This document shows, piece after piece, positions 4,468-38,866 of a stretch of 64,000 bases of DNA (positions are counted from its first letter, which is position 1; each line of letters opens with the position of its first letter). Origin of the DNA: Armatimonadota bacterium (lineage in GTDB: Bacteria; Armatimonadota; UBA5829; DSUL01). The notes beneath the pieces are model-generated. The model was given only the letters and a program-made list of their open reading frames with translations. It had not been told where the DNA came from and did no database searches. The position numbers and the translations under genes are program-made. The stretch lies in assembly GCA_025998755.1 (NCBI GenBank), contig AP024674.1, positions 1,936,162 to 2,000,161 of the forward strand. The letters are read 5' to 3'.

Positions 4468-5979
4468 TCAGCCGGCGCCCAGCTCGCGGCGGAGCAATTC
4501 GTTCACAAGGCGCGGGTTGGCGCGTCCCCCCGTCTCCTTCATGACCTGCCCCACCAGGAATCCGATGGATTTCTCTTTTCCTCCCCGCACATCCGCCGCC
4601 ACACGCTCGTTCCCGGCGATAACCTTACGGACCACAGACAGGATGGCCTCCTCATCCGAGATCTGCGTCTGCCCGCTCGCCTCCACGATCTGGCCGGGAT
4701 CCCTCCCGGTGCGGAACATCTCCTCGAAAACTCCCTTGGCGATCTTCCCGCTGATTGTCCCGTCGTCTATAAGGCGGACAAGCGAGGCTAGCTGAGCGGG
4801 GCGAACCTTGCACGACTGAATGCCTTCTCCGGCCTGGTTCAGCAACCGCAGCAGTTCGGACAGCACCCAGTTGGCGATGGGCTTCGGGTCGCCGTAGTCG
4901 CGCGCCGCCTCCTCGAACCAGTCCGCGATGGCCTTCTCCGATGTCAGAGTAGCCGCATCGGCGCGAGAAAGCCCCATCTCCTCGAACCGCCGCCGGCGCT
5001 GCAGCGGTAGTTCGGGAAGCTCGCGGCGCAACTGCTCCAGCTGCGCTTCCTCGAACCGAAAAGGCAGAAGATCCGGCTCTGGGAAGTAACGATACTCCTG
5101 CTCCAGTTCCTTTCCGCGCATGGGAGCGGTGACTTCGTTCTCCTCATCCCAGCGGCGCGTCTCATGGACCACCACTCCACCGCTCCGGATGGTCTCGATC
5201 TGCCGGCGGATTTCGTATTCCAGCCCCCGGTACACCGAACGGAAGGAATTGAGGTTCTTCAGCTCGGTACGGGTGCCATACTCCCGGGACCCGGCAGGCC
5301 GGACCGATACATTCGGCTCACAGCGCAGAGACCCTTCCTCCATCTTGCCATCGCAGACCCCGAGATACAGCAGGATCTGACGAAGCTGCATGATGTACTC
5401 ACGCGCCTCGTAAGCCGTGTTGATCTGATCGAAGCCGGGCCGCGGATCGTGCTCCGTGACGATCTCCATCAGCGGGACGCCGCTACGGTTGTAGTCCACC
5501 TCGCTCTCAGAAGGGGAGGAGTGCAGCAGTTTGCCTGTATCCTCCTCCAAGTGCACCCGGCGTATCCCAATGCGCTTGACTGTGCCGTCTTCCGTCTCGA
5601 TCTCAATCCAGCCTCGGACGCCGATGGGGGTGTCGCCGTACTGGGAGATCTGATAGCCCTTGGGGAGGTCCGGATAGAAGTAGTTCTTTCGGTGGAAGAA
5701 GGTCTCCCGGTTGATCTCGCAGTTCAGCGCCATGGCGGCGCGAACCACGAACTCCACGGCCTGCCGGTTCGCCACCGGAAGGGACCCGGGCAGCCCCAGG
5801 CACACCGGACAGCAGCGCGTGTTCGGTTCGCCGCCGAACTCGGCGCTGCAGGAGCAAAACATCTTGCTGCGGGTCAGAAGCTCGGCATGGACCTCCATGC
5901 CGATGACGGCTTCGAACCCGCTCTCCGCAATATCAACAGCCAAATTCGTCTCCGCCAATCTGAAATCCACCTGCCGCAC
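4468..5979 (-). CDS. gatB: Asp-tRNA(Asn)/Glu-tRNA(Gln) amidotransferase subunit B
   Basis: [13 protein letters not shown]-terminus, CxxC...C cluster, C-terminal GatB/YqeY domain. Start may lie slightly downstream of the track start. Confidence 0.9.
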
Positions 5980-5983
5980 CCGA

Positions 5984-7444
5984 CTATATGGCGGGCCGGA
6001 GGCGATGGAATTCGGTGGCCTGCTCGAAGGTGTAGGCCGCGCGCAGCATGGTTTCCTCGTCGAATGGCCGGGCCATGATCTGCATTCCCACGGGAAGACC
6101 GTCCACCAGCCCGCAGGGCAGGCTGAGCGCCGGAATGCCCGCCAGATTCACCGGGATGGTGCAGACATCGGCCAGCTTCATCTGGAAGGGATCGTCCGCG
6201 CGCTCGCCCACTGCGAAGGCAGGCGTGGGCGATGTGGGTGTCAGCAGCACATCGCACTCCTGAAAGGCCCGGTCGAAGTCGCGTCGCAGAAGGGTGCGCA
6301 CCTGCTGGGCTTTCAGGTAATAGGCATCGTAGTATCCGGCCGAAAGCGCGTAGGTCCCGATCATGATGCGCTGTTTGACCTCCGCACCAAAACCCTCCGC
6401 GCGCGAGCGCATGAACATATCCACGTGGTCCGAAGCTGCGCCGGAGCGGTGGCCGTAACGCACTCCGTCGTAGCGCGCCAGGTTGGAGCTGGCCTCCGCC
6501 GGCGCGATGATGTAGTAGACCGGGAGCGCGTAGCCCACGTTGGGCATGGAGATTTCCCGGATCTTCGCGCCCGCTTTCTCCAGCACCCGGGCCCCTTCCT
6601 GCACGGCCTGGGCCACGTCTTCCCGCACACCCTGAGCGAAGAACTCCCGCGGCAGCCCCACCGTCATGCCCTGCACATCCCGCACGAGAGCCTGTGTGAA
6701 GTCCGGCGATTCGCCGGGATAGCTGGTGGAGTCCAGAGGATCGTGCCCGCAGATGATGTTCAACACCAGCGCAGCGTCCCTGACATCACGCGTGAGCGGG
6801 CCAATCTGGTCCAGACTGGAAGCATAAGCCACCAGTCCGTACCGCGACACCCGGCCGTATGTGGGTTTCACACCCACAATCCCGCAGAAGGAGGCCGGCT
6901 GGCGAATGGACCCCCCGGTATCTGAGCCGAGGGCATAGAACACCTGTCCCGCAGCCACCGCAGCCGCAGACCCTCCGCTCGAGCCGCCAGGCACTGTGGA
7001 GGTGTTCCAGGGATTGCGCGTCACCTTGAATGCGGAATTCTCTGTGGAGGACCCCATCGCGAACTCGTCCAGGTTTGTCTTGCCGCAGATGACCCCTCCC
7101 CGGTCCAGAATGCGCTGGACGGCGGTGGCATTGTAGGGAGGCTCCCATCCCTCCAGGATGCGCGAGGCGCAGGTGCAGGGCACGCCCTTCAGGCACATAT
7201 TGTCCTTCACCGCAGCCGGCACCCCTGCCAGCGGGTCGGGAAAGGCGGCCGGGTTGGCATCGAAACGCGCGGCTGCCTCCATAGCTATCTCTTCGGTTAG
7301 AGCCAGAAACGCCGAAAGCGACGGCTCCAGCGCGGCGATGCGCTCCAGGCAGGCGCGTGTCAGATCGCGGGCAGAGATGCGGCCCGAACGGAGCGCTTCG
7401 GATGCCTGCCAGGCGGTCTGGATGTTTTCGATGTCGCGCGTCAT
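5984..7444 (-). CDS. gatA: Glu-tRNA(Gln) amidotransferase subunit A
   Basis: Amidase signature [15 protein letters not shown]. Real start MTRDIENIQ at 7444; the first 63 aa of the track ORF are a spurious extension. Confidence 0.9.
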
Positions 7445-27639: not shown

Positions 27640-27818
27640 CCTACACTCCGAATGAGGCAGGCGGGAACCGCCGGCGCAAGATGTTGTTTTAGTTTATTAG
27701 GGACGAAGCCTGGAAAGCAATTCGGGCACAGCACGTCGGGAAGGCGTACCAGTCAATCTTGCGCGGGCAAGGCTCCTCACAGAAGCCTACAACGCGCTCA
27801 AAGGCGAGCGAGAAATCC

Positions 27819-28607
27819 ATGGGCGATTGCGCGAGCGTTCAGGAGAGCATTTCAGCTCTGGTTGACAGCGAAGTTTCAGGCGAGGAACTCGACACGGTTC
27901 TCAGGCATCTCGAGCAGTGCGGAGACTGCGCGGCAGTGCGGGCCGAGATGGTCCGGCTGAAGGCGGTGGCGCAGGTGGCCCTGGCTTCCACCAGTTGTCC
28001 CTCGTCACTGCGGCGACGGGTACTTCAGGAACTGAACTCTGAAGTCCGCGAGCGCCGGGACGCTGCCCGCCCGTGGCGGCCCCTCCGTTTCGTCTGGGCA
28101 CCGGCGGCGCTGGCGGCAGGTCTTCTGCTGCTGTTTGCCGGACGGCCCGGATATGTTCCCCTCCACGAACTCCCGTCGCTCCAGCAGAGGAACTCGCTCC
28201 ATCGAGTGGCTCACGAAACGCCGCAGATGGCGGCCATGGCGCTTCGTGAGGAGCTGGATATCGGAGTCCGCCCGGTTGAGCTGGCTCCGCTGGGACTGCG
28301 ATTCGAGTCCGCCGGGCGCACTAGCCTGGGGGGATGCAAGGGGGCCTACTTCACTTTTGTAACCCCGGATGGGCAGCGCCTGACGGTTTTTGAGATCTGT
28401 CCGCAGGGCAAGGCGGTGCCAGCCGGCCGTAGTGCCTCCCGCTACGATCTGCCGGAGGGCTGGCAGATCCTGAGAACGGCGGACGGCCGCGACATCCTGT
28501 TCCTGAAACCCCCACGCGGGCTTGTGGTGGCCATCTGTTCGGACCTGCCGCTGCAAAAGGCTGCTGACGCCGGGAAACTGGTGGGCGAACAGTTGGCGCG
28601 ATACTGA
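27819..28607 (+). CDS. zf-HC2-type anti-sigma factor, membrane-spanning
   Basis: HLEQCGDCA putative zinc finger; one TM helix (AALAAGLLLLFAG); periplasmic C-terminal domain. Start taken at MGDCASVQ (27819) rather than the track's 27759. Confidence 0.6.
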   Translation: MGDCASVQESISALVDSEVSGEELDTVLRHLEQCGDCAAVRAEMVRLKAVAQVALASTSCPSSLRRRVLQELNSEVRERRDAARPWRPLRFVWAPAALAAGLLLLFAGRPGYVPLHELPSLQQRNSLHRVAHETPQMAAMALREELDIGVRPVELAPLGLRFESAGRTSLGGCKGAYFTFVTPDGQRLTVFEICPQGKAVPAGRSASRYDLPEGWQILRTADGRDILFLKPPRGLVVAICSDLPLQKAADAGKLVGEQLARY

Positions 28608-29551: not shown

Positions 29552-30037
29552 TCACCGGGATGCCAGATGCCTGTCCAGCATCAGCAGACCCTGCGAGCTG
29601 GAGCCCACCATCTTGACCTGCTCCAGAATGTCGCTGGCCGTCTTCTCCTCCTCGACCTGCTCATTGATGAACCACTGCAGGAAGGCCTGCGTGGCGTAGT
29701 CGTTCTCCGCAACCGCTTTGGCGTACAGGTCATTGATAGCGGCCGTCACCATCCTCTCGTGCTCCAGCACCTTTTCGAAGATGTCCTGGGCACCCTGGAA
29801 GTCCACGGGCGGCTGCGCGACGGGCTTCAACAGGATGCGGCCGCCACGGTCGTTGATGTAGTTGTAGAACTTCAGAGCGTGCCCGTACTCTTCCGCGCTC
29901 TGCGCGCGCAGCCAGTGACCGAAACCGCCCAGGTTGACGGACTCGCAATAGGCGGACATCGAGAGGTAGTAATAAGAGGAGTAGAACTCCTTGTTCATAT
30001 GCTCGTTGAGAGCATCCAGAAGAGACTGACTCAGCAC
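29552..30037 (-). CDS. ftn: non-heme ferritin
   Basis: 161 aa; ferroxidase-centre residues [13 protein letters not shown]...EHE...[11 protein letters not shown]. Confidence 0.85.
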
Positions 30038-30222
30038 TTCTTCAGCTTCCTTTCCTTCGCCGGGATGCTCCGGCTGACAGTATTGAGCCTGACGGATCCG
30101 GGTGGGCGAGGACCACGCCTCGCGGACTCAGACCAAAGCAGATTCGGCACGACCGGCCGGCAGGTCTGTCCCGGAGCCGGGAAGAATGATATCACAGCGC
30201 CGGGTGACCCGGTCCTTCGGCC

Positions 30223-31272
30223 GTGACTTTCTTACCCTGCCGGCCGTCCATGCAAAACTGCTCGTTAGCGAATAATAACTATTCCTGTACAAGGGTTCCC
30301 CTCTGGACCCTGCTTCTTGTCCTGCTGGTTCTTTCCTGTCTGCCGCGCGCCCGGGCGTCTGTGGTCCCCCAACAATACTCCATGCCGAAACAAGCCCTGG
30401 AGTGGGTGGTATCCTTCGAGGTGCGCTCGCTTGAGGATCTGGAGAGGCTGCAGCGCAGATGCCGGATCATCATCGAGTCCCTCCCAGCGGGACCGGAGGC
30501 GCAGGACGCGCGGGATACTGTGATGACGGTGGAGGATTTTGCCTCGCCACAGACGGCCCCCGGGGAGGAACTTCTGCTAGTATCCTTTACGCACTCCGAT
30601 GACCCAGCCATCCGCCGTCTGCGGGATTCGGTCGGCCTGAAACCTCCGGAAGGAGCAGCAGTGGTGCGTGTTTATCCCACTCCGGCCGAGATGCCATCCG
30701 GAATCAGGCGCCTGTTCCGGGGCGAGACGGCCGGAATCACTTTCCTGACACGCTACATCGCCATCTGGACGGAAGGCCGCTCGGACGAGGAGACAGCGGA
30801 CCTGCTGTCTCACGAACTGGCGCATGCGTTCGTGCTGAGCCTTCTGGGGCTGGAGGCTAACAGGCTGCCCCAGTGGTTCCACGAAGGTTTGGCTCTCCAT
30901 CTCTCAGGAGGAAAGACGCAATACATCAGCCACCAGGACTACGGCCACACCCGAGTGAGCTGGTCGCCACGTGACTACAACGAATGGAGGCGCGCCTTCC
31001 GCTATCTGGACCGCCGCTTCGGGACGGAGGAGACGGAGAGATTCATCCGGGAGGCCATCGAGACCCGCGACGCGGAGGGCGCGCTGCGGAAGGTTATCGG
31101 ACTGTCCGGCTACCCCGAGCTTGCGCGGCTGGCCCGGCGCCGCTGGTTGCTGGAGCAGACAACGCGAGCCGGAGCGATCCTGGGTCTGCTGGCACTGGCT
31201 GCCTATCTGCTGCGGCTCAGGGCGTGGCGTGAGCGAAGGGAGATGCTGGAGGATGATGAAATGCGCTGGTAG
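30223..31272 (+). CDS. membrane-anchored HExxH zinc metalloprotease-like protein (peptidase MA-like)
   Basis: Signal/TM VPLWTLLLVLLVLSCLP; SHELAHAF ...WFHEGLALH (HExxH + downstream E); C-terminal TM AGAILGLLALAAYLL. Start may be M10 (30250). Confidence 0.6.
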   Translation: MTFLPCRPSMQNCSLANNNYSCTRVPLWTLLLVLLVLSCLPRARASVVPQQYSMPKQALEWVVSFEVRSLEDLERLQRRCRIIIESLPAGPEAQDARDTVMTVEDFASPQTAPGEELLLVSFTHSDDPAIRRLRDSVGLKPPEGAAVVRVYPTPAEMPSGIRRLFRGETAGITFLTRYIAIWTEGRSDEETADLLSHELAHAFVLSLLGLEANRLPQWFHEGLALHLSGGKTQYISHQDYGHTRVSWSPRDYNEWRRAFRYLDRRFGTEETERFIREAIETRDAEGALRKVIGLSGYPELARLARRRWLLEQTTRAGAILGLLALAAYLLRLRAWRERREMLEDDEMRW

Positions 31273-31278
31273 GCTCCC

Positions 31279-32772
31279 ATGGCGATGAGTATGCTTCTGG
31301 CGCTCCTGGGAGGCTGGCTGGTAGCTTATCTGATCTTCATCCGGAGCGGCCGCCCTGATGAGCGTCCCGGGATGCGAGTGCTCCTGTCGTTTGCGGCTGG
31401 AGTCGCCACCTCATTTCTGGCGACGGCGCTCTGGATGCTCAGCGCGGGAGCCGTGCCGTCGGGAATGGAATTCGTGCCGGCAGGAATGCTTCTGCTGGGA
31501 CTGGGAGTTGGATGGCTGGGCCAGAGGACATGGCTGTCCGGCCAGCTGATCACCAACACGCCGGTTACGCGCATCCGCTCAGCCCCCCAGGGCTGGGTGA
31601 AGCTGAGAGGACAGGCCATCGTCGAGGAGCCAGTCTATTCCTGCACGGGCCACATCCCATGTCTATATTTTTCAGAGAGAACGGAACGCTACACCCGCCA
31701 TACCCGCCGCGTGCAGGATCCGCAGACCAAAGAGTGGAGGACTGAGACCTACTATTCCTGGGATTATTGGTCATCGGCCTCCGGCGCGGCACCTTTCCGC
31801 TTGACGGATGGCACAGGGCAGGTGGCGGTGGACGTGAAGGCGACGGTGTTTTACCCTGCTCACTCGGCGCAGTTCTACAACGGCATTCCGGGCAGCGGAA
31901 GTATCTCTGCCAGGGAGGGAGACTTTCGCACCACCGTGAACTACATTGCCCTGGGCTCGCAACTGGAGGCTGTTGGGCGGCTCCACCTGAGGGTTTTGAC
32001 ACGTCATCCCACGCAAGGCGCGGCGATGGTGGCAGAGGGATCGCTGGGGGGCGTCGCCGTCGATCGAAGGCTGGGAGGCTGCTTCGGGATCATGGTGGGT
32101 GGCCTGATGGTCGCCGGCGCTCCGCTTTCGCCAGCCCTTATTGCCGGGATAAACGGGGAGAACAACATGGACTTCAACTCCGCTCTTGCCTTCGTGCTTG
32201 CCGGGTCCGCGCTTGGTCTGGTGCTGTTGGGATGGATGGTAAGCCTTTACAATGCCATCGTCACACTCAAGAAACAGGCGGAGCGCGCGTGGTCGGATAT
32301 TGACGTGCAACTGCAGATGCGCTGGGACCTGGTGCCCAACCTGGTGGAGACGGTGAAGGCATACGCGCAGCACGAGCGACAGATCTTCGAGGCCACGCTG
32401 GCCGCAAGGGAACGCGCGCTCGGCGCGCGGGACAGAAGAACCCGGATCTCTGCGGAGGACCGACTGGAGCAGACTCTGCCGCCACTGCTGGCCATAGCCG
32501 AGGACTATCCGCAACTCAAGGCATCGGAAAACTTCCTGAAACTGCAGCAGCAGTTGCAGGAGATGGAGGACATCATTGCCGACCGCAGGGAGATTTACAA
32601 TGACAGCGCGACGAACTTCAATACGTTCATCCAGTCCTTTCCGGGACTGCTGATGGCAGGCGCGCTGTCCGAGAAGCCGCTGCCGCTGTTCCAGGCGGAA
32701 CCGGCGGCGCGTCAGCATCCGCTCTCCGGAAGATCGCCTTCGGCCGGTGGCGGACACAATGCGGGAGGATAA
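31279..32772 (+). CDS. fusion protein: N-terminal multi-TM domain of unknown function + C-terminal LemA domain
   Basis: Three N-terminal TM helices, ~200-aa soluble domain, two TM helices, then LemA (YNAIVTLKKQAERAWSDIDVQLQMRWDLVPNLVETVKAY...AIAEDYPQLKASENF...REIYNDSATNFN). Starts 7 nt after the HExxH gene. Confidence 0.75.
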   Translation: MAMSMLLALLGGWLVAYLIFIRSGRPDERPGMRVLLSFAAGVATSFLATALWMLSAGAVPSGMEFVPAGMLLLGLGVGWLGQRTWLSGQLITNTPVTRIRSAPQGWVKLRGQAIVEEPVYSCTGHIPCLYFSERTERYTRHTRRVQDPQTKEWRTETYYSWDYWSSASGAAPFRLTDGTGQVAVDVKATVFYPAHSAQFYNGIPGSGSISAREGDFRTTVNYIALGSQLEAVGRLHLRVLTRHPTQGAAMVAEGSLGGVAVDRRLGGCFGIMVGGLMVAGAPLSPALIAGINGENNMDFNSALAFVLAGSALGLVLLGWMVSLYNAIVTLKKQAERAWSDIDVQLQMRWDLVPNLVETVKAYAQHERQIFEATLAARERALGARDRRTRISAEDRLEQTLPPLLAIAEDYPQLKASENFLKLQQQLQEMEDIIADRREIYNDSATNFNTFIQSFPGLLMAGALSEKPLPLFQAEPAARQHPLSGRSPSAGGGHNAGG

Positions 32773-32777
32773 CAACG

Positions 32778-33767
32778 ATGCAATACCGATCGCTGGGGCG
32801 CACGGGCGTCAAAGTCAGCAAGCTCTGTCTGGGATGCATGATGTTCGGCCGCAAGACGGACGAGGCGGAAAGCATCCGTATGGTGCACCGCGCCATGGAC
32901 GCGGGCATCAATTTCCTGGACACGGCCAACGTCTATGCCCGTGGAGCAAGCGAGGAGATCACCGGCAAGGCCCTGAAGGACGGCAGGCGTGACCGGGTGG
33001 TGCTGGCCACGAAGGTGCATGGACGGATGGAGGACGATGAGCCGAACGCGCAGGGCAATCACCGGAGGCACATCATCCAGCAGTGCGAAGCATCACTTAG
33101 ACGCCTGCAGACTGACTGGATAGACCTGTATCAGATCCATCGTCCGGACCCTTGCATCCCTGTGGATGAGACGCTGCGCGCGCTGGATGATCTGGTGCGG
33201 CAGGGCAAGGTGCGCTATATCGGGACCAGCACGTTCGCGGCTTGGCAGATCATGGAAGCACTCTGGGTTTCCAAAGAGCTCGGGTTGAACCGGTTCGTAT
33301 GCGAGCAGCCGCCGTATCATCCGCTGGACCGGCGAATCGAGCGCGAGCTGGTCCCGATGGCGCTGACGTATGGCATTGGGCTCATCCCGTGGTCGCCGCT
33401 GGCTGGAGGGTTCTTCACCGGGAAATACCGTCGCGGGGAGCCGTTCCCGGAGGATGCGCGTCTGGCCGGCAGCTCCCGCCAATATGGGGATGCGGCTTTC
33501 GACGTGCTGGACGTGTTTGAGGAACTGGCACGGGAGAAGGGGGCGACGCCATCTCAGGTGGCTCTGGCCTGGAACGCGGCTCAGCCCGGCATCACCGCGC
33601 CCATCATCGGCCCGCGCACCATGGAGCAGCTTGAGGACAACCTGGGCGCGGCGGAGGTGGAGATAACGGACTCCGACCGTGAGCGCATTGACGCCGTCGC
33701 TGCTCCCGGCCGCGCCATTGTGCCGTTATACGAGGCTGCCTGGGGCCCGCATCCCCACCGCTGGTGA
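32778..33767 (+). CDS. aldo/keto reductase
   Basis: MQYRSLGRTGVKVSKLCLGCMMFG; INFLDTANVYA; IGTSTF; 329 aa. Confidence 0.9.
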   Translation: MQYRSLGRTGVKVSKLCLGCMMFGRKTDEAESIRMVHRAMDAGINFLDTANVYARGASEEITGKALKDGRRDRVVLATKVHGRMEDDEPNAQGNHRRHIIQQCEASLRRLQTDWIDLYQIHRPDPCIPVDETLRALDDLVRQGKVRYIGTSTFAAWQIMEALWVSKELGLNRFVCEQPPYHPLDRRIERELVPMALTYGIGLIPWSPLAGGFFTGKYRRGEPFPEDARLAGSSRQYGDAAFDVLDVFEELAREKGATPSQVALAWNAAQPGITAPIIGPRTMEQLEDNLGAAEVEITDSDRERIDAVAAPGRAIVPLYEAAWGPHPHRW

Positions 33768-33804
33768 TGGGTGAAGGAGGGGCCGGCCGTCACGACTTTT
33801 CCGA

Positions 33805-34224
33805 TCAGCAAGAGTTCGGCGCCGTCGGGGGAGAGCTTGGCCGAGGCCGTGGTCTTGGGATACCAAATCCCCTCTTTTCCTTTGTCCCCTCGGCCATCAT
33901 CTCGCCGGCCACTCCCAGCCATTTGCCCGGCGAGAACTTTACCGTGACTCCCTGGCCGATGTTCAGGCGGGCGCCCTCATTTACAAAGACCTGGGCCTCC
34001 ACGATGTATTCCGGGCCCGATCCCTGCCTGCCGAAGTCAGAGTCGGCGTTCCAGGTAACGGTCTGGCCATCATTGTAGTGCCGGTCAACAATGTTGTAGC
34101 GCCACTCCTGGTTGTAACCGTCCCAGTAGTAGTCACGATTGACGTACACAGCAGCGTGCACGGAACCGGCGATGAGAAGAACCGCGCAAGCCGCAACAAG
34201 CATGCGCAAAGCGGGAGGAACCAT
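33805..34224 (-). CDS. small secreted hypothetical protein
   Basis: Signal peptide MVPPALRMLVAACAVLLIAGSVHA, then a Y/W/N-rich mature region and a Pro-rich tail. The track ORF extends to 34317. Confidence 0.4.
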   Translation of the reverse strand: MVPPALRMLVAACAVLLIAGSVHAAVYVNRDYYWDGYNQEWRYNIVDRHYNDGQTVTWNADSDFGRQGSGPEYIVEAQVFVNEGARLNIGQGVTVKFSPGKWLGVAGEMMAEGTKEKRGFGIPRPRPRPSSPPTAPNSC

Positions 34225-34534
34225 CCCCAACACCTTCTTTCTCTCTTGTAGATTTACCGGTAAGGCTATCTCTGAACGGGGGAGTCCCCCGACACATTCA
34301 CGGGTCAGTTGACGCACGACCGTCTGACACCGGTGTATCGGGAGAAGCTGGGAATCCGGGAGGCGGGCCTTTCTGCACGACCGGGAGAGAGGCAGGGGTC
34401 CGGATCACGGTTCAGCCACCCTCAAAGATTATGATAACTCCCTGTCAATCGGCCGAAAATCCGTACTTTTGCCAGTATTGGATAACGATTGCCGTTGCCG
34501 CAATCAGTGCCGTCCAGGACGCCATCCGGCTTGA

Positions 34535-37500
34535 TTGGGCTACAATCCCGGCAGAAGCAGAGGCCCGGATATGGTCATGCCGGACGAGCAAGATCCTCTG
34601 GACGGTTTTCACCCCGCCACCGCAGGGTGGTTCCGGCGCGCGCTTGGCCAGCCCACCCCCGCCCAGGCGATGGGATGGCCGCCCATCCGCGCGGGCGAAA
34701 ACACCCTGATCCTTGCCCCGACGGGATCCGGCAAGACTCTGGCCGCCTTTCTGGCAGGGCTGGACCACCTGTTCCAGAAAGGTCTTGAAGGATCGCTGCC
34801 GAAGGGGGTATCACTCCTCTATATCTCCCCGCTCAAGGCTCTGAACTATGACATCGAGCGCAACCTGCGCCACCCTCTTGGGGGAATCGCGCAGGAGATG
34901 CGGCGTATGGGGCTGGAGCCTCCTGAGATACGGACAGCGGTACGGACCGGAGATACACCGTCCCGGGAGCGAGCCCGCATGGCGCGCCGGCCGCCGCACA
35001 TCCTCATCACCACTCCCGAGTCACTCAATCTGATCCTGTGCTCGCGCGCCGCCGCGATGCTTTCCGGCGTGCGGCAGGTCATCGTGGACGAGATCCATTC
35101 CCTGGCATCCAACAAACGGGGAGCATTCCTGTCCGTCTTGCTGGAACGGCTGGAAGACCTGACCGGGCGGAGCTTCTCCCGTGTGGGACTTTCGGCCACC
35201 CAGCGTCCACTGGAGGAGGTGGCCCGGTTTCTGGGTGGATATGACTCCCGAGGGTACCAACGGCCCGTCCGGATTGTGGACGCGGGTGCGCGCAAAAAGC
35301 TGGATGTCGCCGTGGATACCGCCGTGGCGGACTTCCGCACCATGGAGACAGGCGAGCTGTGGCCGTCGCTCGAGGGCAAACTGCTGCGGGAAGTGGAACG
35401 GCGGCGGTCAAGCATCATCTTTGCGAACACGCGCGGGGCGGTGGAGCGCCTCAGCCGGGAACTGAATGAGATGGCCGGGGAACGACTGGTCGAGCCCCAC
35501 CACGGAAGCATCTCCGCGACGCGACGCAGGGAGACGGAGGAGCGCCTGAAGAGGGGAGAGCTGCGAGCCGTGGTCGCCACCGCAAGTCTGGAGCTGGGCA
35601 TAGACATGGGTGCGGTGGAGCTTGTGTGCCAGGTGGGATCGCCGAAGTCTGTCGCCGCCGGTCTGCAGAGAGTGGGACGGGCCGGACATCTGGCCGGAGC
35701 GGAGAGCGTGGGCCGTATTTTCGCGACATCCCCGGTGGATCTTCTGGAAAGTGCGATTCTGGCCGCCGGAATGTTGGAAAGTGAAGTGGAACCGACGCGC
35801 ATCGTCAGCAATCCGCTGGATGTCCTGGCCCAGCAGATTGCGGCGATGTGCGTGCACGGCCCTGTAGATGTCGAGGGCATTTTCAACACGGTCCGGCGCT
35901 CGGCCTGCTTTCACAACCTGTCATCGGAGGCGTTCCATCGCACGCTTGAAATGGTGGCCGGACGGATGGGGAAAGGTCTGCCCGCGCGCGTCTCCCTGGA
36001 CCGTGTGAACGGCCGAGTGCTGCCTCTCCCTGGCACGCTCCGGGCGGTGGTGGCAGGCGGAGGGGTCATCCCGGATACGGGACAGTTCCCGGTGTATCTG
36101 AGCGGTACGCGCACGTCCATCGGGGAGCTGGACGAAGAATTCGTCTTCGAGGCGCGGGAGGGCGACGCGTTCCGGCTGGGAGTGAGCACGTGGCGCATTG
36201 AGAAGATCGAGGCAGACAGAATCTTCGTGCGCCCTTCCCCCGGATCGCCGGCAAAAGCCCCGTTCTGGCGCGGGGAGCAGGTAAGCCGTCCACCCGCCAC
36301 CGGTGAGGCTATCGGCAGGTTCCTGGCGGAGACGGAGGATCTGAAGGGGCTGGAGGAGATCCGCGACTTTGTTCAGCAAAGGACCCCCTGCACGCCGGAG
36401 GCGGCGCGCTCTCTGGCGCAATTCATCCACCGGCAGCGCGAGAAGGGTGCTCTCCCCACGCACCGGCGCATTGTGGTGGAGTTCTACCGTGACGCCATCG
36501 GCGAGGGACGTATGGTGGTCATCACGCCATACGGGTCGCGGGTGCACCAGGCGCTCCGGATTGCCCTGACCGGGATGTTGCAGGATGAGACGGGCGCCGC
36601 TCCGGAGAGCATGGCGGGAGATGAAGGGGTGCTTATCCGGCTGCCTTCGGAAGAGGGCTGCTCCGCAGCGACCTTGAGGAAGCTGACGCCGGAGCGGTTC
36701 CGGGAACTGCTGCGGCGCGGACTGATGCGAAGCGCCCTGTTCGGGCTGCGGTTCCGCCAGAATGCCGCACGAGCCCTGCTGATGCCCCCGCGCCAGCCCG
36801 GCCGCAGGAGTCCTCTGTGGCTCCAGCGCCTGAAGGCGAAGGATCTTCTCCAGATGGTGCGCGGGATCCCGGATTTCCCAGTGGTGCTGGAGACCACGCG
36901 GGAGTGTCTGGAAGAGCAGATGGACGCCGCCCTCACGGAGCGGCTGCTGGCCGGACTCCAGTCCGGGGAGGTGGAGTTAAAGGAGGTGCATTCGGCGGCG
37001 CCCTCACCGTTCGCATCGGCGCTGGAGTTCCAGCTGCAGATGGAGTTCATGTACGTCTGGGACCGGCCGGTGGGGGCTGCAGCACTGGAGGCAGGACCAG
37101 CCGGGCATCAGGCGACACCTCTGACAACCGGACGAGCGCTCGATGGCCGCGCCATCGAGCGGCTCCGGGAGGAGGCTCAAGCACTGTCCTCACGCTCACG
37201 CGCCCGCAACGCCGCAGAGCTGGCGGAGACTCTGCGGCGGCTGGGAGACCTCTCAGCCCATGAGGCCGCGGAGCGCTCCGCCAGCGGCGATCTTTCCCTC
37301 CTGCAGGAGCTCACCGCGACCGGGACAGTGGTTGCACTGGAGATCTGTGGGGAAGAGCGGTTCGTTCTGGCGGAGGAGGCCGCGGAATGGCGGGCAGCCG
37401 TTCGAGATCCGGGCGCGAGCGGGGTTTTCTGGAACAGGGCGGCAGCCCGCCACATCGCGGCAAGCCCTGGATGCCGTCCTGAGGAGTTCGCATCCCGCTA

Positions 37501-38866
37501 TGGTCTGAGTCCGGACTTCGCACGTTCCCGCTTCCAGGAGGCGCGCCATGCGGGTCTGGCTCTGGAGGCGGAAGGCCGCTGGATGACCCCCGAGGCGCTA
37601 GAGGCCGCAGTGCGCATGTCCCGAGGGATCAGGCGCAGAGAGGCGCGGCCGGTACCGCTGGAGTACTTCCAGCAGTTCGTCCTGGCGTGGCAGCACACTC
37701 TCCCGGTAGACCGCCTTCACGGCAGGGAGGGAACGCTGGAGATCCTGGAGCAGCTGGCAGGATGCTGTCTGCCTGCCAGACTCTGGGAGCCGGAGGTTCT
37801 TGCCCGGCGCGTGGAGGGCTACCAACCCGAATGGCTGGACTGGCTGCTGGGAGCCGGCCTTGTGCTCTGGCGCGGCGTTCCGGGAGCAGGCCGACCCGGA
37901 GATCTTGCGCTGCTGCCCAGAGGACTGGAGCGCCTGCCGCTGACCGTACGGGAGCCCGACGCTCCGCCGGAGGGTTCCTTTGAATGCTCCGTGCTGGAGA
38001 CTCTGCGCGAACGCGGCGCAAGCTTTTTGGTGGATCTGGGGCTTGCGCTGAGAACAGACACCCGCAAGATCGAGAAGACGTTAATGGATCTGGCCTGGGC
38101 GGGTCTGGTTACCCACGACTCTTTCGCTCCGGTGCGCGGTAATCAGCCGGCGCCGGACATCCATCGGGAGGCTCAGCGGGCGCACGGTTCTCCTCGCCAT
38201 CGTTACCAGCAGCTCAAACGGTTGCGTCCCGCGTTGAAGCTGGCTGCGCCGGGGCGCTGGCAGGCACTGGATGCATCGCAGACCGTGCTGGACGAGGAAA
38301 CGGTGGAGTTACTTGCCCGTCTTCTGCTGGAGCGCTACGGGGTGGCGGCGCGGGACATCGCTCACCTTGCCGGCATCCCGGCCCCGTGGGTGAGTCTTTA
38401 CCGCGCTCTGGAACGGATGGAGCTGGCGGGCGAGGTGGAAAGGGGATATTTCGTGGAAGATCTGGGTGGCGCTCAGTTTGCTCTGCCGGAAGCTATGCAG
38501 GCGCTGAAAGGCGCCTCGACAGGTGATGCCGCGGTGGTTCTTAACACCTGCGACCCGGCGCTGGTCACCGCCCTCCCCTGCGCGCGGCGGCCCGGCAACT
38601 ATGTTGTTCTGCTGAAGGGAAAGCCTGCGCTGATTCTGGAATCCGCTGCGAAAAGGCTGCTGCCCGTGGGGTCCGAAGCCGGGGCACTGAAATGTCTCCC
38701 GTCCTTGCGTCACGTCCTGGCATCGCCCTGGCCCCTGCGTCCCATCCGCCGCTTGGAGGTTATCCTGTGGGGTGACGCCGAGATCCACGGGCATCCGGTG
38801 GAGAGCGCCCTGAGGTCTCACGGTTTCCAGCGCACACCCAGGGGAATGCTGCTGGAGGCAGGCTGA
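34535..38866 (+). CDS. lhr: ATP-dependent helicase Lhr (full-length large helicase-related protein)
   Basis: 1443 aa; LILAPTGSGKTLAAFLAG Walker A, DEIH, ELGID, QRVGRAGH; long Lhr C-terminal extension. Start possibly at 34577 (MPDEQDPLDGFHPATAGWFRRAL). Confidence 0.85.
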   Translation: MGYNPGRSRGPDMVMPDEQDPLDGFHPATAGWFRRALGQPTPAQAMGWPPIRAGENTLILAPTGSGKTLAAFLAGLDHLFQKGLEGSLPKGVSLLYISPLKALNYDIERNLRHPLGGIAQEMRRMGLEPPEIRTAVRTGDTPSRERARMARRPPHILITTPESLNLILCSRAAAMLSGVRQVIVDEIHSLASNKRGAFLSVLLERLEDLTGRSFSRVGLSATQRPLEEVARFLGGYDSRGYQRPVRIVDAGARKKLDVAVDTAVADFRTMETGELWPSLEGKLLREVERRRSSIIFANTRGAVERLSRELNEMAGERLVEPHHGSISATRRRETEERLKRGELRAVVATASLELGIDMGAVELVCQVGSPKSVAAGLQRVGRAGHLAGAESVGRIFATSPVDLLESAILAAGMLESEVEPTRIVSNPLDVLAQQIAAMCVHGPVDVEGIFNTVRRSACFHNLSSEAFHRTLEMVAGRMGKGLPARVSLDRVNGRVLPLPGTLRAVVAGGGVIPDTGQFPVYLSGTRTSIGELDEEFVFEAREGDAFRLGVSTWRIEKIEADRIFVRPSPGSPAKAPFWRGEQVSRPPATGEAIGRFLAETEDLKGLEEIRDFVQQRTPCTPEAARSLAQFIHRQREKGALPTHRRIVVEFYRDAIGEGRMVVITPYGSRVHQALRIALTGMLQDETGAAPESMAGDEGVLIRLPSEEGCSAATLRKLTPERFRELLRRGLMRSALFGLRFRQNAARALLMPPRQPGRRSPLWLQRLKAKDLLQMVRGIPDFPVVLETTRECLEEQMDAALTERLLAGLQSGEVELKEVHSAAPSPFASALEFQLQMEFMYVWDRPVGAAALEAGPAGHQATPLTTGRALDGRAIERLREEAQALSSRSRARNAAELAETLRRLGDLSAHEAAERSASGDLSLLQELTATGTVVALEICGEERFVLAEEAAEWRAAVRDPGASGVFWNRAAARHIAASPGCRPEEFASRYGLSPDFARSRFQEARHAGLALEAEGRWMTPEALEAAVRMSRGIRRREARPVPLEYFQQFVLAWQHTLPVDRLHGREGTLEILEQLAGCCLPARLWEPEVLARRVEGYQPEWLDWLLGAGLVLWRGVPGAGRPGDLALLPRGLERLPLTVREPDAPPEGSFECSVLETLRERGASFLVDLGLALRTDTRKIEKTLMDLAWAGLVTHDSFAPVRGNQPAPDIHREAQRAHGSPRHRYQQLKRLRPALKLAAPGRWQALDASQTVLDEETVELLARLLLERYGVAARDIAHLAGIPAPWVSLYRALERMELAGEVERGYFVEDLGGAQFALPEAMQALKGASTGDAAVVLNTCDPALVTALPCARRPGNYVVLLKGKPALILESAAKRLLPVGSEAGALKCLPSLRHVLASPWPLRPIRRLEVILWGDAEIHGHPVESALRSHGFQRTPRGMLLEAG

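Follow-up and report, generated by a model that had tools for sequence, protein, structure and literature searches.

A divergent member of the prokaryotic BAM/GIDE–LemA fusion family encoded beside a metallopeptidase-like gene in hot-spring Armatimonadota

Canonical LemA proteins, such as those of Listeria and Thermotoga (TM0961; Protein Data Bank, PDB, entry 2ETD), and MamQ are built from a transmembrane (TM) helix followed by a helical LemA domain of ~150 amino acids (aa); the canonical proteins are single-pass and ~190 aa long. In Streptococcus pneumoniae D39, the gene for a plain single-pass LemA protein adjoins htpX, which encodes a multi-pass membrane HExxH metalloprotease of the M48/HtpX family with a cytoplasmic active site, and the two genes (SPD_1139 and SPD_1138, respectively) change together in an RNase mutant (PMC8546594). 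A BAM/GIDE domain (PF12483) is found in eukaryotic MUL1/MAPL/GIDE, whose layout is TM–BAM–TM–RING (PMC4457424). A study of BAM/GIDE evolution from 2015 described prokaryotic BAM proteins, none of which carries a RING, and does not mention LemA (PMC4457424). Here, we analyzed two adjacent genes, called A and B below, in a 64,000-nucleotide (nt) stretch of contig AP024674.1 (positions 1,936,162 to 2,000,161; referred to here as the window) from a metagenome-assembled genome (MAG) of a hot-spring clade of Armatimonadota. Sequence comparison identifies the B product as a divergent member of a widespread, Pfam-visible, and unstudied TM–GIDE–TM–TM–LemA architecture. The A product is well supported as a divergent Peptidase_MA_2-type zinc metallopeptidase-like protein with predicted activity. 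We hold these identities of the two proteins with high confidence. The features of the locus are collected in Table 1.

As the preliminary description of this DNA had recognized, LemA fills the C-terminal third of a protein far longer than canonical LemA. The Pfam LemA profile (PF04011) matches aa 337 to 481 of the 497-aa B product with E=1e-46 (158.9 bits against a cut-off of 26.2), and a phmmer comparison of B with PDB 2etd_A gives E=1e-31. In Foldseek, the AlphaFold2 (AF2) model of B matches 2etd with E=1.8e-6, a target TM-score of 0.80, and a root mean square deviation of 2.0 Å. B shares with canonical LemA and MamQ the TM helix that leads into the LemA domain, but it does not fit the single-pass layout of ~190 aa, as it has 330 additional N-terminal residues, five TM helices, and a GIDE domain; B carries the LemA domain without being a canonical LemA. 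An assignment to MamQ (NF040966) was rejected, with a score of 81.3 bits against an equivalog cut-off of 250. Three TM helices before a soluble domain had been described, and these are present, but two more lie before LemA. Alignment with two distant full-length relatives, P0015 and P0016, equates TM3 with the sole N-terminal TM helix of typical family members, and TM1 and TM2 are a lineage-restricted extension. TM4 and TM5 form a hairpin over aa ~256 to 328, and TM5 stands directly before the LemA domain as its own N-terminal anchor.

Between TM3, which ends at about aa 86, and TM4, which begins at about aa 256 to 262, lies a soluble domain that had been proposed to be GIDE-like. On its own, this region matches the GIDE profile below threshold, with E=0.088 and 12.7 bits for the whole protein and E=0.014 and 15.3 bits for the domain alone (cut-off, 23.6). 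However, P0015 and P0016, which are annotated as GIDE plus LemA and are 28% identical to B over 76 to 81% of its length, match PF12483 with E=5e-22. B aligns with them in register, with P…G.V…G, a conserved Cys, and FxLxDxTGxVxV in common. Because of this alignment with PF12483-positive proteins, and because relatives found with a profile of the domain itself pass Pfam, the sequences point clearly to homology of aa 88 to 257 with BAM/GIDE, which bears out the proposal. In the AF2 model, the beta domain has predicted local distance difference test (pLDDT) values of 83 to 93 over aa 110 to 170. The other suggested assignment of this domain, DUF3592, was dropped, as no Pfam match to that family was found at E<=0.1.

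This arrangement resembles that of MUL1/MAPL/GIDE in that a BAM/GIDE domain flanked by TM helices is followed by a second soluble domain. In MUL1, that second domain is a C-terminal RING, whereas B has no RING match in Pfam and carries LemA in its place. MUL1 has one TM helix between BAM and RING, which lie on opposite sides of the membrane, whereas B has two helices between domains that are predicted to lie on the same side. In addition, the MUL1 BAM domain is in the intermembrane space, in contrast to the predicted cytoplasmic position of the GIDE domain of B.

The combination of the two domains is common. We searched a profile of B's GIDE domain against 1.84 billion representative proteins and obtained 3,498 matches at E<=1e-3, of which 768 have E<=1e-10 and 81 have E<=1e-30. 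Among the 149 best matches outside B's own cluster, a local hmmsearch found LemA on the C-terminal side of the GIDE-like domain in 105, and most of those without LemA are short fragments. When ten long relatives were put through Pfam, all ten passed the GIDE cut-off and nine passed that for LemA, with P0173 having GIDE only. A typical family member is 420 to 470 aa long. One N-terminal hydrophobic segment is found in 84 of 112 fused relatives and two or more in 13; five of these 13 are B and its orthologues, and the other eight include P0100 and P0138, which have the same layout of three plus two helices (P0100 is 38% identical to B over 407 aa). Two hydrophobic segments separate GIDE from LemA in 77 of the 112. 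Thus, B shares domain order, interdomain hairpin, GIDE motifs, and LemA domain with other prokaryotic PF12483–PF04011 proteins but differs from most of them in having three N-terminal helices and from the family in having a GIDE domain under the Pfam threshold. The proteins come from Planctomycetota (e.g., MEO0651015.1), Verrucomicrobiota (e.g., MCD8534853.1), Myxococcales, and others, with a patchy distribution across phyla, and are named "LemA family protein" or "hypothetical protein." Among the long relatives, we found additional TPR, lactonase, DUF2207_C, TonB_C, TerB, SHOCT/YbjN, and amidase domains. Five proteins (P0033, P0052, P0085, P0102, and P0107) apparently carry such domains at the C or N terminus (TPR, seven-bladed lactonase, TonB_C, TerB, and SHOCT plus YbjN).

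GIDE and LemA also occur as separate neighboring genes. In three cases (L013, P0036, and P0028), an apparently unfused GIDE protein has a LemA open reading frame (ORF) directly downstream. At L013 (positions 4863 to 6472), from an Acidobacteriota MAG, a stop codon closes the frame of a 343-aa TM–GIDE–TM protein, and LemA is encoded directly behind it by a gene of its own that includes a TM helix; this has the look of a true two-gene version of the fusion, though the MAG may be a long-read assembly and a frameshift is possible. The split of GIDE and LemA in the frameshift-ridden assembly that encodes P0028 (L099; European Nucleotide Archive, ENA, contig_88513) is probably an assembly or indel artifact, because the transketolase gene on that contig is likewise broken, into three short ORFs. 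A scan of a genome collection with the GIDE profile used a single peptide pattern and returned four loci, so it is not a census. We consider it quite probable that prokaryotic BAM/GIDE is almost always coupled to LemA, fused or as the next gene; the two would then act as one unit. The coupling is visible in domain databases, and our literature search, which covered one library of papers, found none that links BAM/GIDE with LemA. The preliminary description had presented the architecture of B as previously undescribed and its N-terminal domain as one of unknown function. Since B belongs to a known and common family, in which GIDE plus LemA is recognized by Pfam and is the majority layout among the closest relatives, the claim of novelty fails; the domain is essentially a known, common partner of LemA.

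The A product had been described as a membrane-anchored HExxH peptidase-like protein, and this description holds. It contains both SHELAHAF and WFHEGLAL, and the residues H188, E189, H192, and E212 are invariant in six of six aligned homologues with identities down to 36%; the same HExxH plus E motif is invariant in six aligned Peptidase_MA_2 relatives. E212 lies 20 residues past the second His. A Glu at this distance after the second His is the spacing of gluzincins (clan MA). Domain profiles do not detect the protein directly. The sole Pfam match is a sub-threshold one to BSP (PF04450; 17.7 bits against a cut-off of 23.8), PF13485 (Peptidase_MA_2) gave no match at E<=0.1, and NCBIfam gave a sub-threshold flagellinolysin match only. 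Mid-range relatives of A reach 18 bits with PF13485 (cut-off, 32.4), and more distant relatives from metagenomes clear that cut-off, with 36 to 49 bits each. An hhalign comparison of A's family with these PF13485-positive relatives gave a probability of 98.4% and E=9e-15 over 180 columns, the C-terminal anchor included. Like Peptidase_MA_2 gluzincins, A combines the HExxH with the Glu in W-F-H-E-G-L-A, a bitopic layout, and a C-terminal TM helix with a basic tail, but it falls under the PF13485 threshold, and its own subfamily is small and divergent, with few relatives in the databases.

The AF2 model of A has a pLDDT of 83 and a predicted TM-score (pTM) of 0.74, with a long helix at aa 288 to 339, and the C-terminal TM helix aligns in the Peptidase_MA_2 relatives. 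The best Foldseek hits in the PDB were catalytic domains of M1 aminopeptidases at non-significant levels (E>=0.2; probability <=0.72), and searching the PDB by sequence was of no help. The N terminus reads …LVLSCLPRARA|SV, which is signal-peptide-like; the relative P0024 has an equivalent N-terminal TM helix with K/R on its N side and acidic residues behind it. HtpX/M48 was considered as an identity for A and rejected, as there is no PF01435 match and A has anchors only at its two ends and is not multi-pass.

Table 1. Coordinates of features at the A–B locus (positions in the window)
Feature	Coordinates	Strand	Basis
Conserved non-coding block, probable promoter/operator and 5' leader of the A–B–aldo/keto reductase cluster	30146..30249	+	Near-invariance among orthologous loci
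Gene A, 340-aa bitopic membrane protein, divergent Peptidase_MA_2-type (gluzincin) metallopeptidase-like	30250..31272	+	ORF, shared ATG, hhalign, AF2, dN/dS
Gene A, N-terminal hydrophobic segment, signal peptide or signal anchor (…LWTLLLVLLVLSCLPRARA|SV…)	30298..30357	+	Hydropathy; AxA-like site past the h-region
Gene A, catalytic motif H188-E189-L-A-H192 plus E212 (in WFHEGLAL)	30811..30885	+	Alignment of family members
Gene A, C-terminal transmembrane anchor, then charged tail (RLRAWRERREMLEDDEMRW)	31168..31224	+	Hydropathy
Gene B, 497-aa five-helix membrane protein, prokaryotic BAM/GIDE–LemA fusion family	31279..32772	+	Pfam, profile search, orthologues 68-87% identical
Gene B, TM1 to TM3 (aa 2-23, 30-55, 62-~86)	31282..31536	+	Hydropathy and AF2 helices
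Gene B, divergent BAM/GIDE domain (aa 88-257), beta-rich	31540..32049	+	Alignment with GIDE-positive proteins; profile search
Gene B, TM4 and TM5, helical hairpin between GIDE and LemA	32062..32262	+	Hydropathy; AF2 helices 256-295, 299-360
Gene B, LemA domain, helical bundle (aa 337-481)	32287..32721	+	Pfam; 2etd sequence and fold matches
Aldo/keto reductase gene, probable third gene of the A–B transcript	32778..33767	+	Pfam PF00248 E=5e-85; position kept in all orthologous loci

Both ORFs lie on the + strand where the preliminary description had placed them, and the publicly annotated proteins match them with 100% identity (KatS3mg024_1622, P0019, for A and KatS3mg024_1623, P0001, for B, on a contig of 3.29 Mb). 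The start of A is the one coordinate that we would revise: the mechanical ORF opens at a GTG at 30223 (349 aa), but P0019 (340 aa) and all orthologues use an ATG at 30250, which makes 30250 to 31272 the likelier extent. In comparisons with three orthologues at 66 to 87% protein identity, all without internal stops, dN/dS was 0.17 to 0.22 for A and 0.19 to 0.23 for B, values that identify both as real genes under purifying selection. The ATG of B is 7 nt past the last base of the A stop codon, as had been noted, which leaves a gap of 6 nt; this gap is kept in the orthologues, except that it is 12 nt in L009. The aldo/keto reductase gene begins 5 nt past the end of B. A terminator scan gave no candidate in the gaps of the A–B–reductase cluster and placed a terminator-like hairpin 3' of the reductase gene, at 33857 to 33871. 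From the kept short gap and the absence of a terminator, co-transcription of A and B, a check that had been proposed with the preliminary description, is very likely, and A, B, and the aldo/keto reductase gene almost certainly form one transcript. A functional tie of the reductase to A or B is an unproven candidate link.

Every locus with B directly behind A comes from a close relative (A, 66 to 86% identical; B, 68 to 87%) and is syntenic over eight or more genes, with the shared order Crp, zf-HC2 protein, AP endonuclease, ferritin, A, B, and reductase, followed in some loci by the Lhr helicase. Because these loci are closely related and fully syntenic, the adjacency says nothing past shared ancestry. 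We found no GIDE or LemA in the flanks of eight distinct A lineages (L020 to L031; 32 to 51% identity), five of which have 1.8 to 3.7 kb of downstream sequence; likewise, the A relatives P0023 and P0024 lack a GIDE or LemA neighbor and are followed by an SMR transporter gene and an unrelated ORF, respectively. From the other side, no HExxH neighbor was seen in eight other GIDE–LemA contexts (P0100, P0138, P0015, P0037, the Myxococcales locus L012, and three split loci). Thus, the A–B pairing is confined to a narrow clade of hot-spring Armatimonadota, and the family members examined differ from B in having no peptidase neighbor. The preliminary description had treated A and B as one membrane stress/quality-control module and had named, as tests of this idea, whether the N-terminal domain of B is a known LemA extension and whether the genes are neighbors elsewhere. 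With the domain known from other LemA proteins and the genes adjacent only in closely related, fully syntenic genomes, the two-gene module is, by these tests and on the sequences compared, refuted, and a part in stress or quality control is at best a tentative idea with weak circumstantial support.

The arrangement of the two proteins in the membrane can be predicted from charge. By the positive-inside rule, the N terminus of B would be out, its basic loop 1 (RSGRPDERPGMR) in, and loop 2, which has no basic residue, out. Basic residues stand behind TM3 and before TM4, the acidic TM4–TM5 loop would be out, and LKKQAER past TM5 would be in. P0015 has a stronger version of this pattern, with RLRRKQRLLR directly past TM1. 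This pattern predicts a cytoplasmic position for both GIDE and LemA of B. Such a topology agrees with the one originally predicted for Listeria LemA, which reportedly had a small N terminus outside. The peptidase domain of A is predicted to face outward and to be extracytoplasmic.

With these orientations, GIDE and LemA of B could form one membrane-apposed unit at the inner face that would serve as a scaffold or sense the state of the membrane, and the outward peptidase domain of A might trim or degrade exported or envelope proteins. A and B would most likely be a lineage-specific, co-transcribed operon of two envelope-maintenance genes. A scaffold or sensor mechanism as specific as this is doubtful and is offered tentatively. 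In Flavobacterium, lemA is induced together with a gene for a TPM-domain protein upon deletion of sppA (PMC13236525), which is circumstantial support for a role of LemA proteins generally in membrane homeostasis. We lean toward a loose juxtaposition of A and B rather than an obligate complex. The further idea that the GIDE–LemA unit was recruited in this clade together with an outward MA-type metallopeptidase as a trans-membrane envelope-surveillance module, including a functional link between A and B, strikes us as improbable.

Several points weigh against this reading of the locus. The GIDE domain of B fails to reach the Pfam cut-off by itself, and the AF2 model of the whole B protein is weak (pLDDT, 61; pTM, 0.35). 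The cytoplasmic placement of its domains has the positive-inside rule as its sole basis, and a review places the C-terminal domain of LemA/MamQ outside or in the lumen (PMC3905215), which disagrees with our prediction, so that published views differ on the side that LemA faces. The C-terminal helix of A has about equal charge on both sides. As to the pairing, the context sample is small, at eight contexts per side, and the kept 6-nt spacing argues for more than accidental linkage. In addition, LemA genes are found near metalloprotease genes elsewhere. In a second lineage (L035 to L039 and L044, mutually syntenic high-G+C metagenome contigs; e.g., L035, 1796 to 3903), a Peptidase_MA_2 gene whose product has the same bitopic layout as A lies 0.4 to 2 kb upstream of a plain LemA gene; the two are separated by a small gene for a Bor-like lipoprotein, to which dapF and further ORFs are added in some members. 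The adjoining htpX and lemA genes of S. pneumoniae D39 belong here as well: like A and B, they pair a LemA-domain gene with a membrane HExxH metalloprotease gene, and their expression changes together. Differences are that the streptococcal protease is M48/HtpX, whereas A is bitopic and MA_2-type with a predicted outward domain, and that the streptococcal LemA is without GIDE. We also noted three proteins (P0008, P0014, and P0017) in which LemA and Peptidase_M48 are annotated in one ORF. True LemA–M48 fusions were rejected as an explanation of these, since long Arg/Ser/Pro-rich, low-complexity, and out-of-frame-looking stretches lie between the domains; the probable explanation is that, in high-G+C genomes, adjacent lemA and htpX genes were merged into one call. 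Taken as leads and not as statistics, these cases are weak hints of a wider link between LemA and metalloproteases.

Such cases are also what favors a dedicated protease–regulator pair, in which the GIDE–LemA protein would bind A through the membrane helices of both proteins and the charged cytoplasmic tail of A and would gate or target A's activity, much as LemA may be paired with HtpX (M48) in other bacteria. The conserved spacing of A and B and their similar purifying selection fit this explanation, as do the co-changing streptococcal genes, the bitopic MA_2 gene near LemA in the second lineage, and the merged calls, which at least show lemA beside an M48 gene in those genomes. However, the adjacency is missing in every non-syntenic relative examined on either side, a look of the Rosetta-stone type found a peptidase domain in none of the ten long GIDE-domain relatives, and the predicted soluble domains of A and B lie on opposite sides of the membrane. 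The single LemA plus M48 ORFs lose weight as probable merged calls, and the members of the second lineage, some of which have dapF and other genes in between, are all syntenic and amount to about one independent event. We therefore regard a dedicated pair as unlikely.

That A and B are a horizontally acquired accessory or defense module, for example an abortive-infection membrane effector with a protease partner, is very unlikely. Multi-TM proteins of no known function that have a small beta domain are common among defense effectors, and the family is patchy across phyla, but no PADLOC-DB profile matches A or B at E<=0.1, and a tblastn search of 72,556 plasmids with the GIDE domain gave no match. 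The G+C content is even throughout the window, and the locus is in stable synteny with the ferritin, AP endonuclease, Crp, aldo/keto reductase, and Lhr helicase genes, while other family members stand beside housekeeping genes (those for DHFR, ribosomal proteins, and 5'-nucleotidase). The chance that the long LemA protein is an artifact of a frameshift, a misassembly, or a wrong call that merged two genes is close to nil. Although merged calls (P0008, P0014, and P0017) and a split in an error-ridden assembly (L099) do occur in this material, the 497-aa frame is intact here and in independent assemblies from several samples at 68 to 87% identity, dN/dS is ~0.2 along the whole length of B, and the same domain order is found in more than 100 distinct 50%-identity clusters. 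The reading that B is a genuine, divergent GIDE–LemA protein, loosely juxtaposed with A in one clade, is the one that we keep.

The conserved block on the 5' side of gene A, which has the divergent ferritin gene (29552 to 30037, - strand) on its other side, probably serves the cluster as promoter/operator and leader. These ~105 nt are nearly invariant, although synonymous sites in the same orthologous loci are saturated (dS of about 1.0 to 1.2). The block contains the palindrome TGATATCA as well as a small hairpin that leads into a T-rich run 17 nt upstream of the ATG of A. An Rfam search of the block found no family (best E=1.9, far under the gathering score), and RNAalifold found no covariation support in an alignment of about three distinct variants that included one misplaced coding row (L011:300-420). 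A scan for sigma-70-like promoters over 29900 to 34600 gave no site, but such a scan is uninformative for this phylum. The block is the best handle on which signal controls the operon. On the 5' side of the ferritin gene, a stretch at 30038 to 30080 (- strand; …AGCTTCCTTTCCTTCGCCGGGATGCTCCGGCTGA…) is likewise strongly conserved among the orthologous loci; it holds a CCGG…CCGG hairpin plus a purine-rich ribosome-binding site on the - strand and may be a ferritin leader or operator.

Two other neighbors deserve a mention. A zf-HC2 (anti-sigma-factor-type) membrane protein is encoded at 27759 to 28607 (+), between genes for a Crp-family regulator (-) and an AP endonuclease (-), in an order kept in the orthologous loci; no ECF sigma gene directly adjoins it. 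Between the reductase gene and the gene for an Lhr-type helicase (34535 to 38866) lies a 170-aa ORF (33805 to 34317, -) whose product has a hydrophobic segment at its N terminus and matches nothing in Pfam; at locus L001, no gene is called where this ORF sits.

A and B are divergent additions to two known, uncharacterized families, with functions proposed from sequence, and the locus itself is of little weight in that it adds one divergent member to each. The only mildly interesting point lies at the level of the family: among the closest relatives of B's domain, prokaryotic BAM/GIDE is nearly always coupled to LemA. Because the two domains are fused while the functions of both are unknown, as is that of the BAM domain of MUL1/MAPL, whose ancestral role is an acknowledged open question, this coupling suggests that GIDE and LemA be studied jointly. 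The recurrence of LemA genes near genes for membrane HExxH proteases, HtpX in streptococci and MA_2-type proteins here and in one other lineage, is a lead on a part that LemA may play in membrane protein homeostasis.

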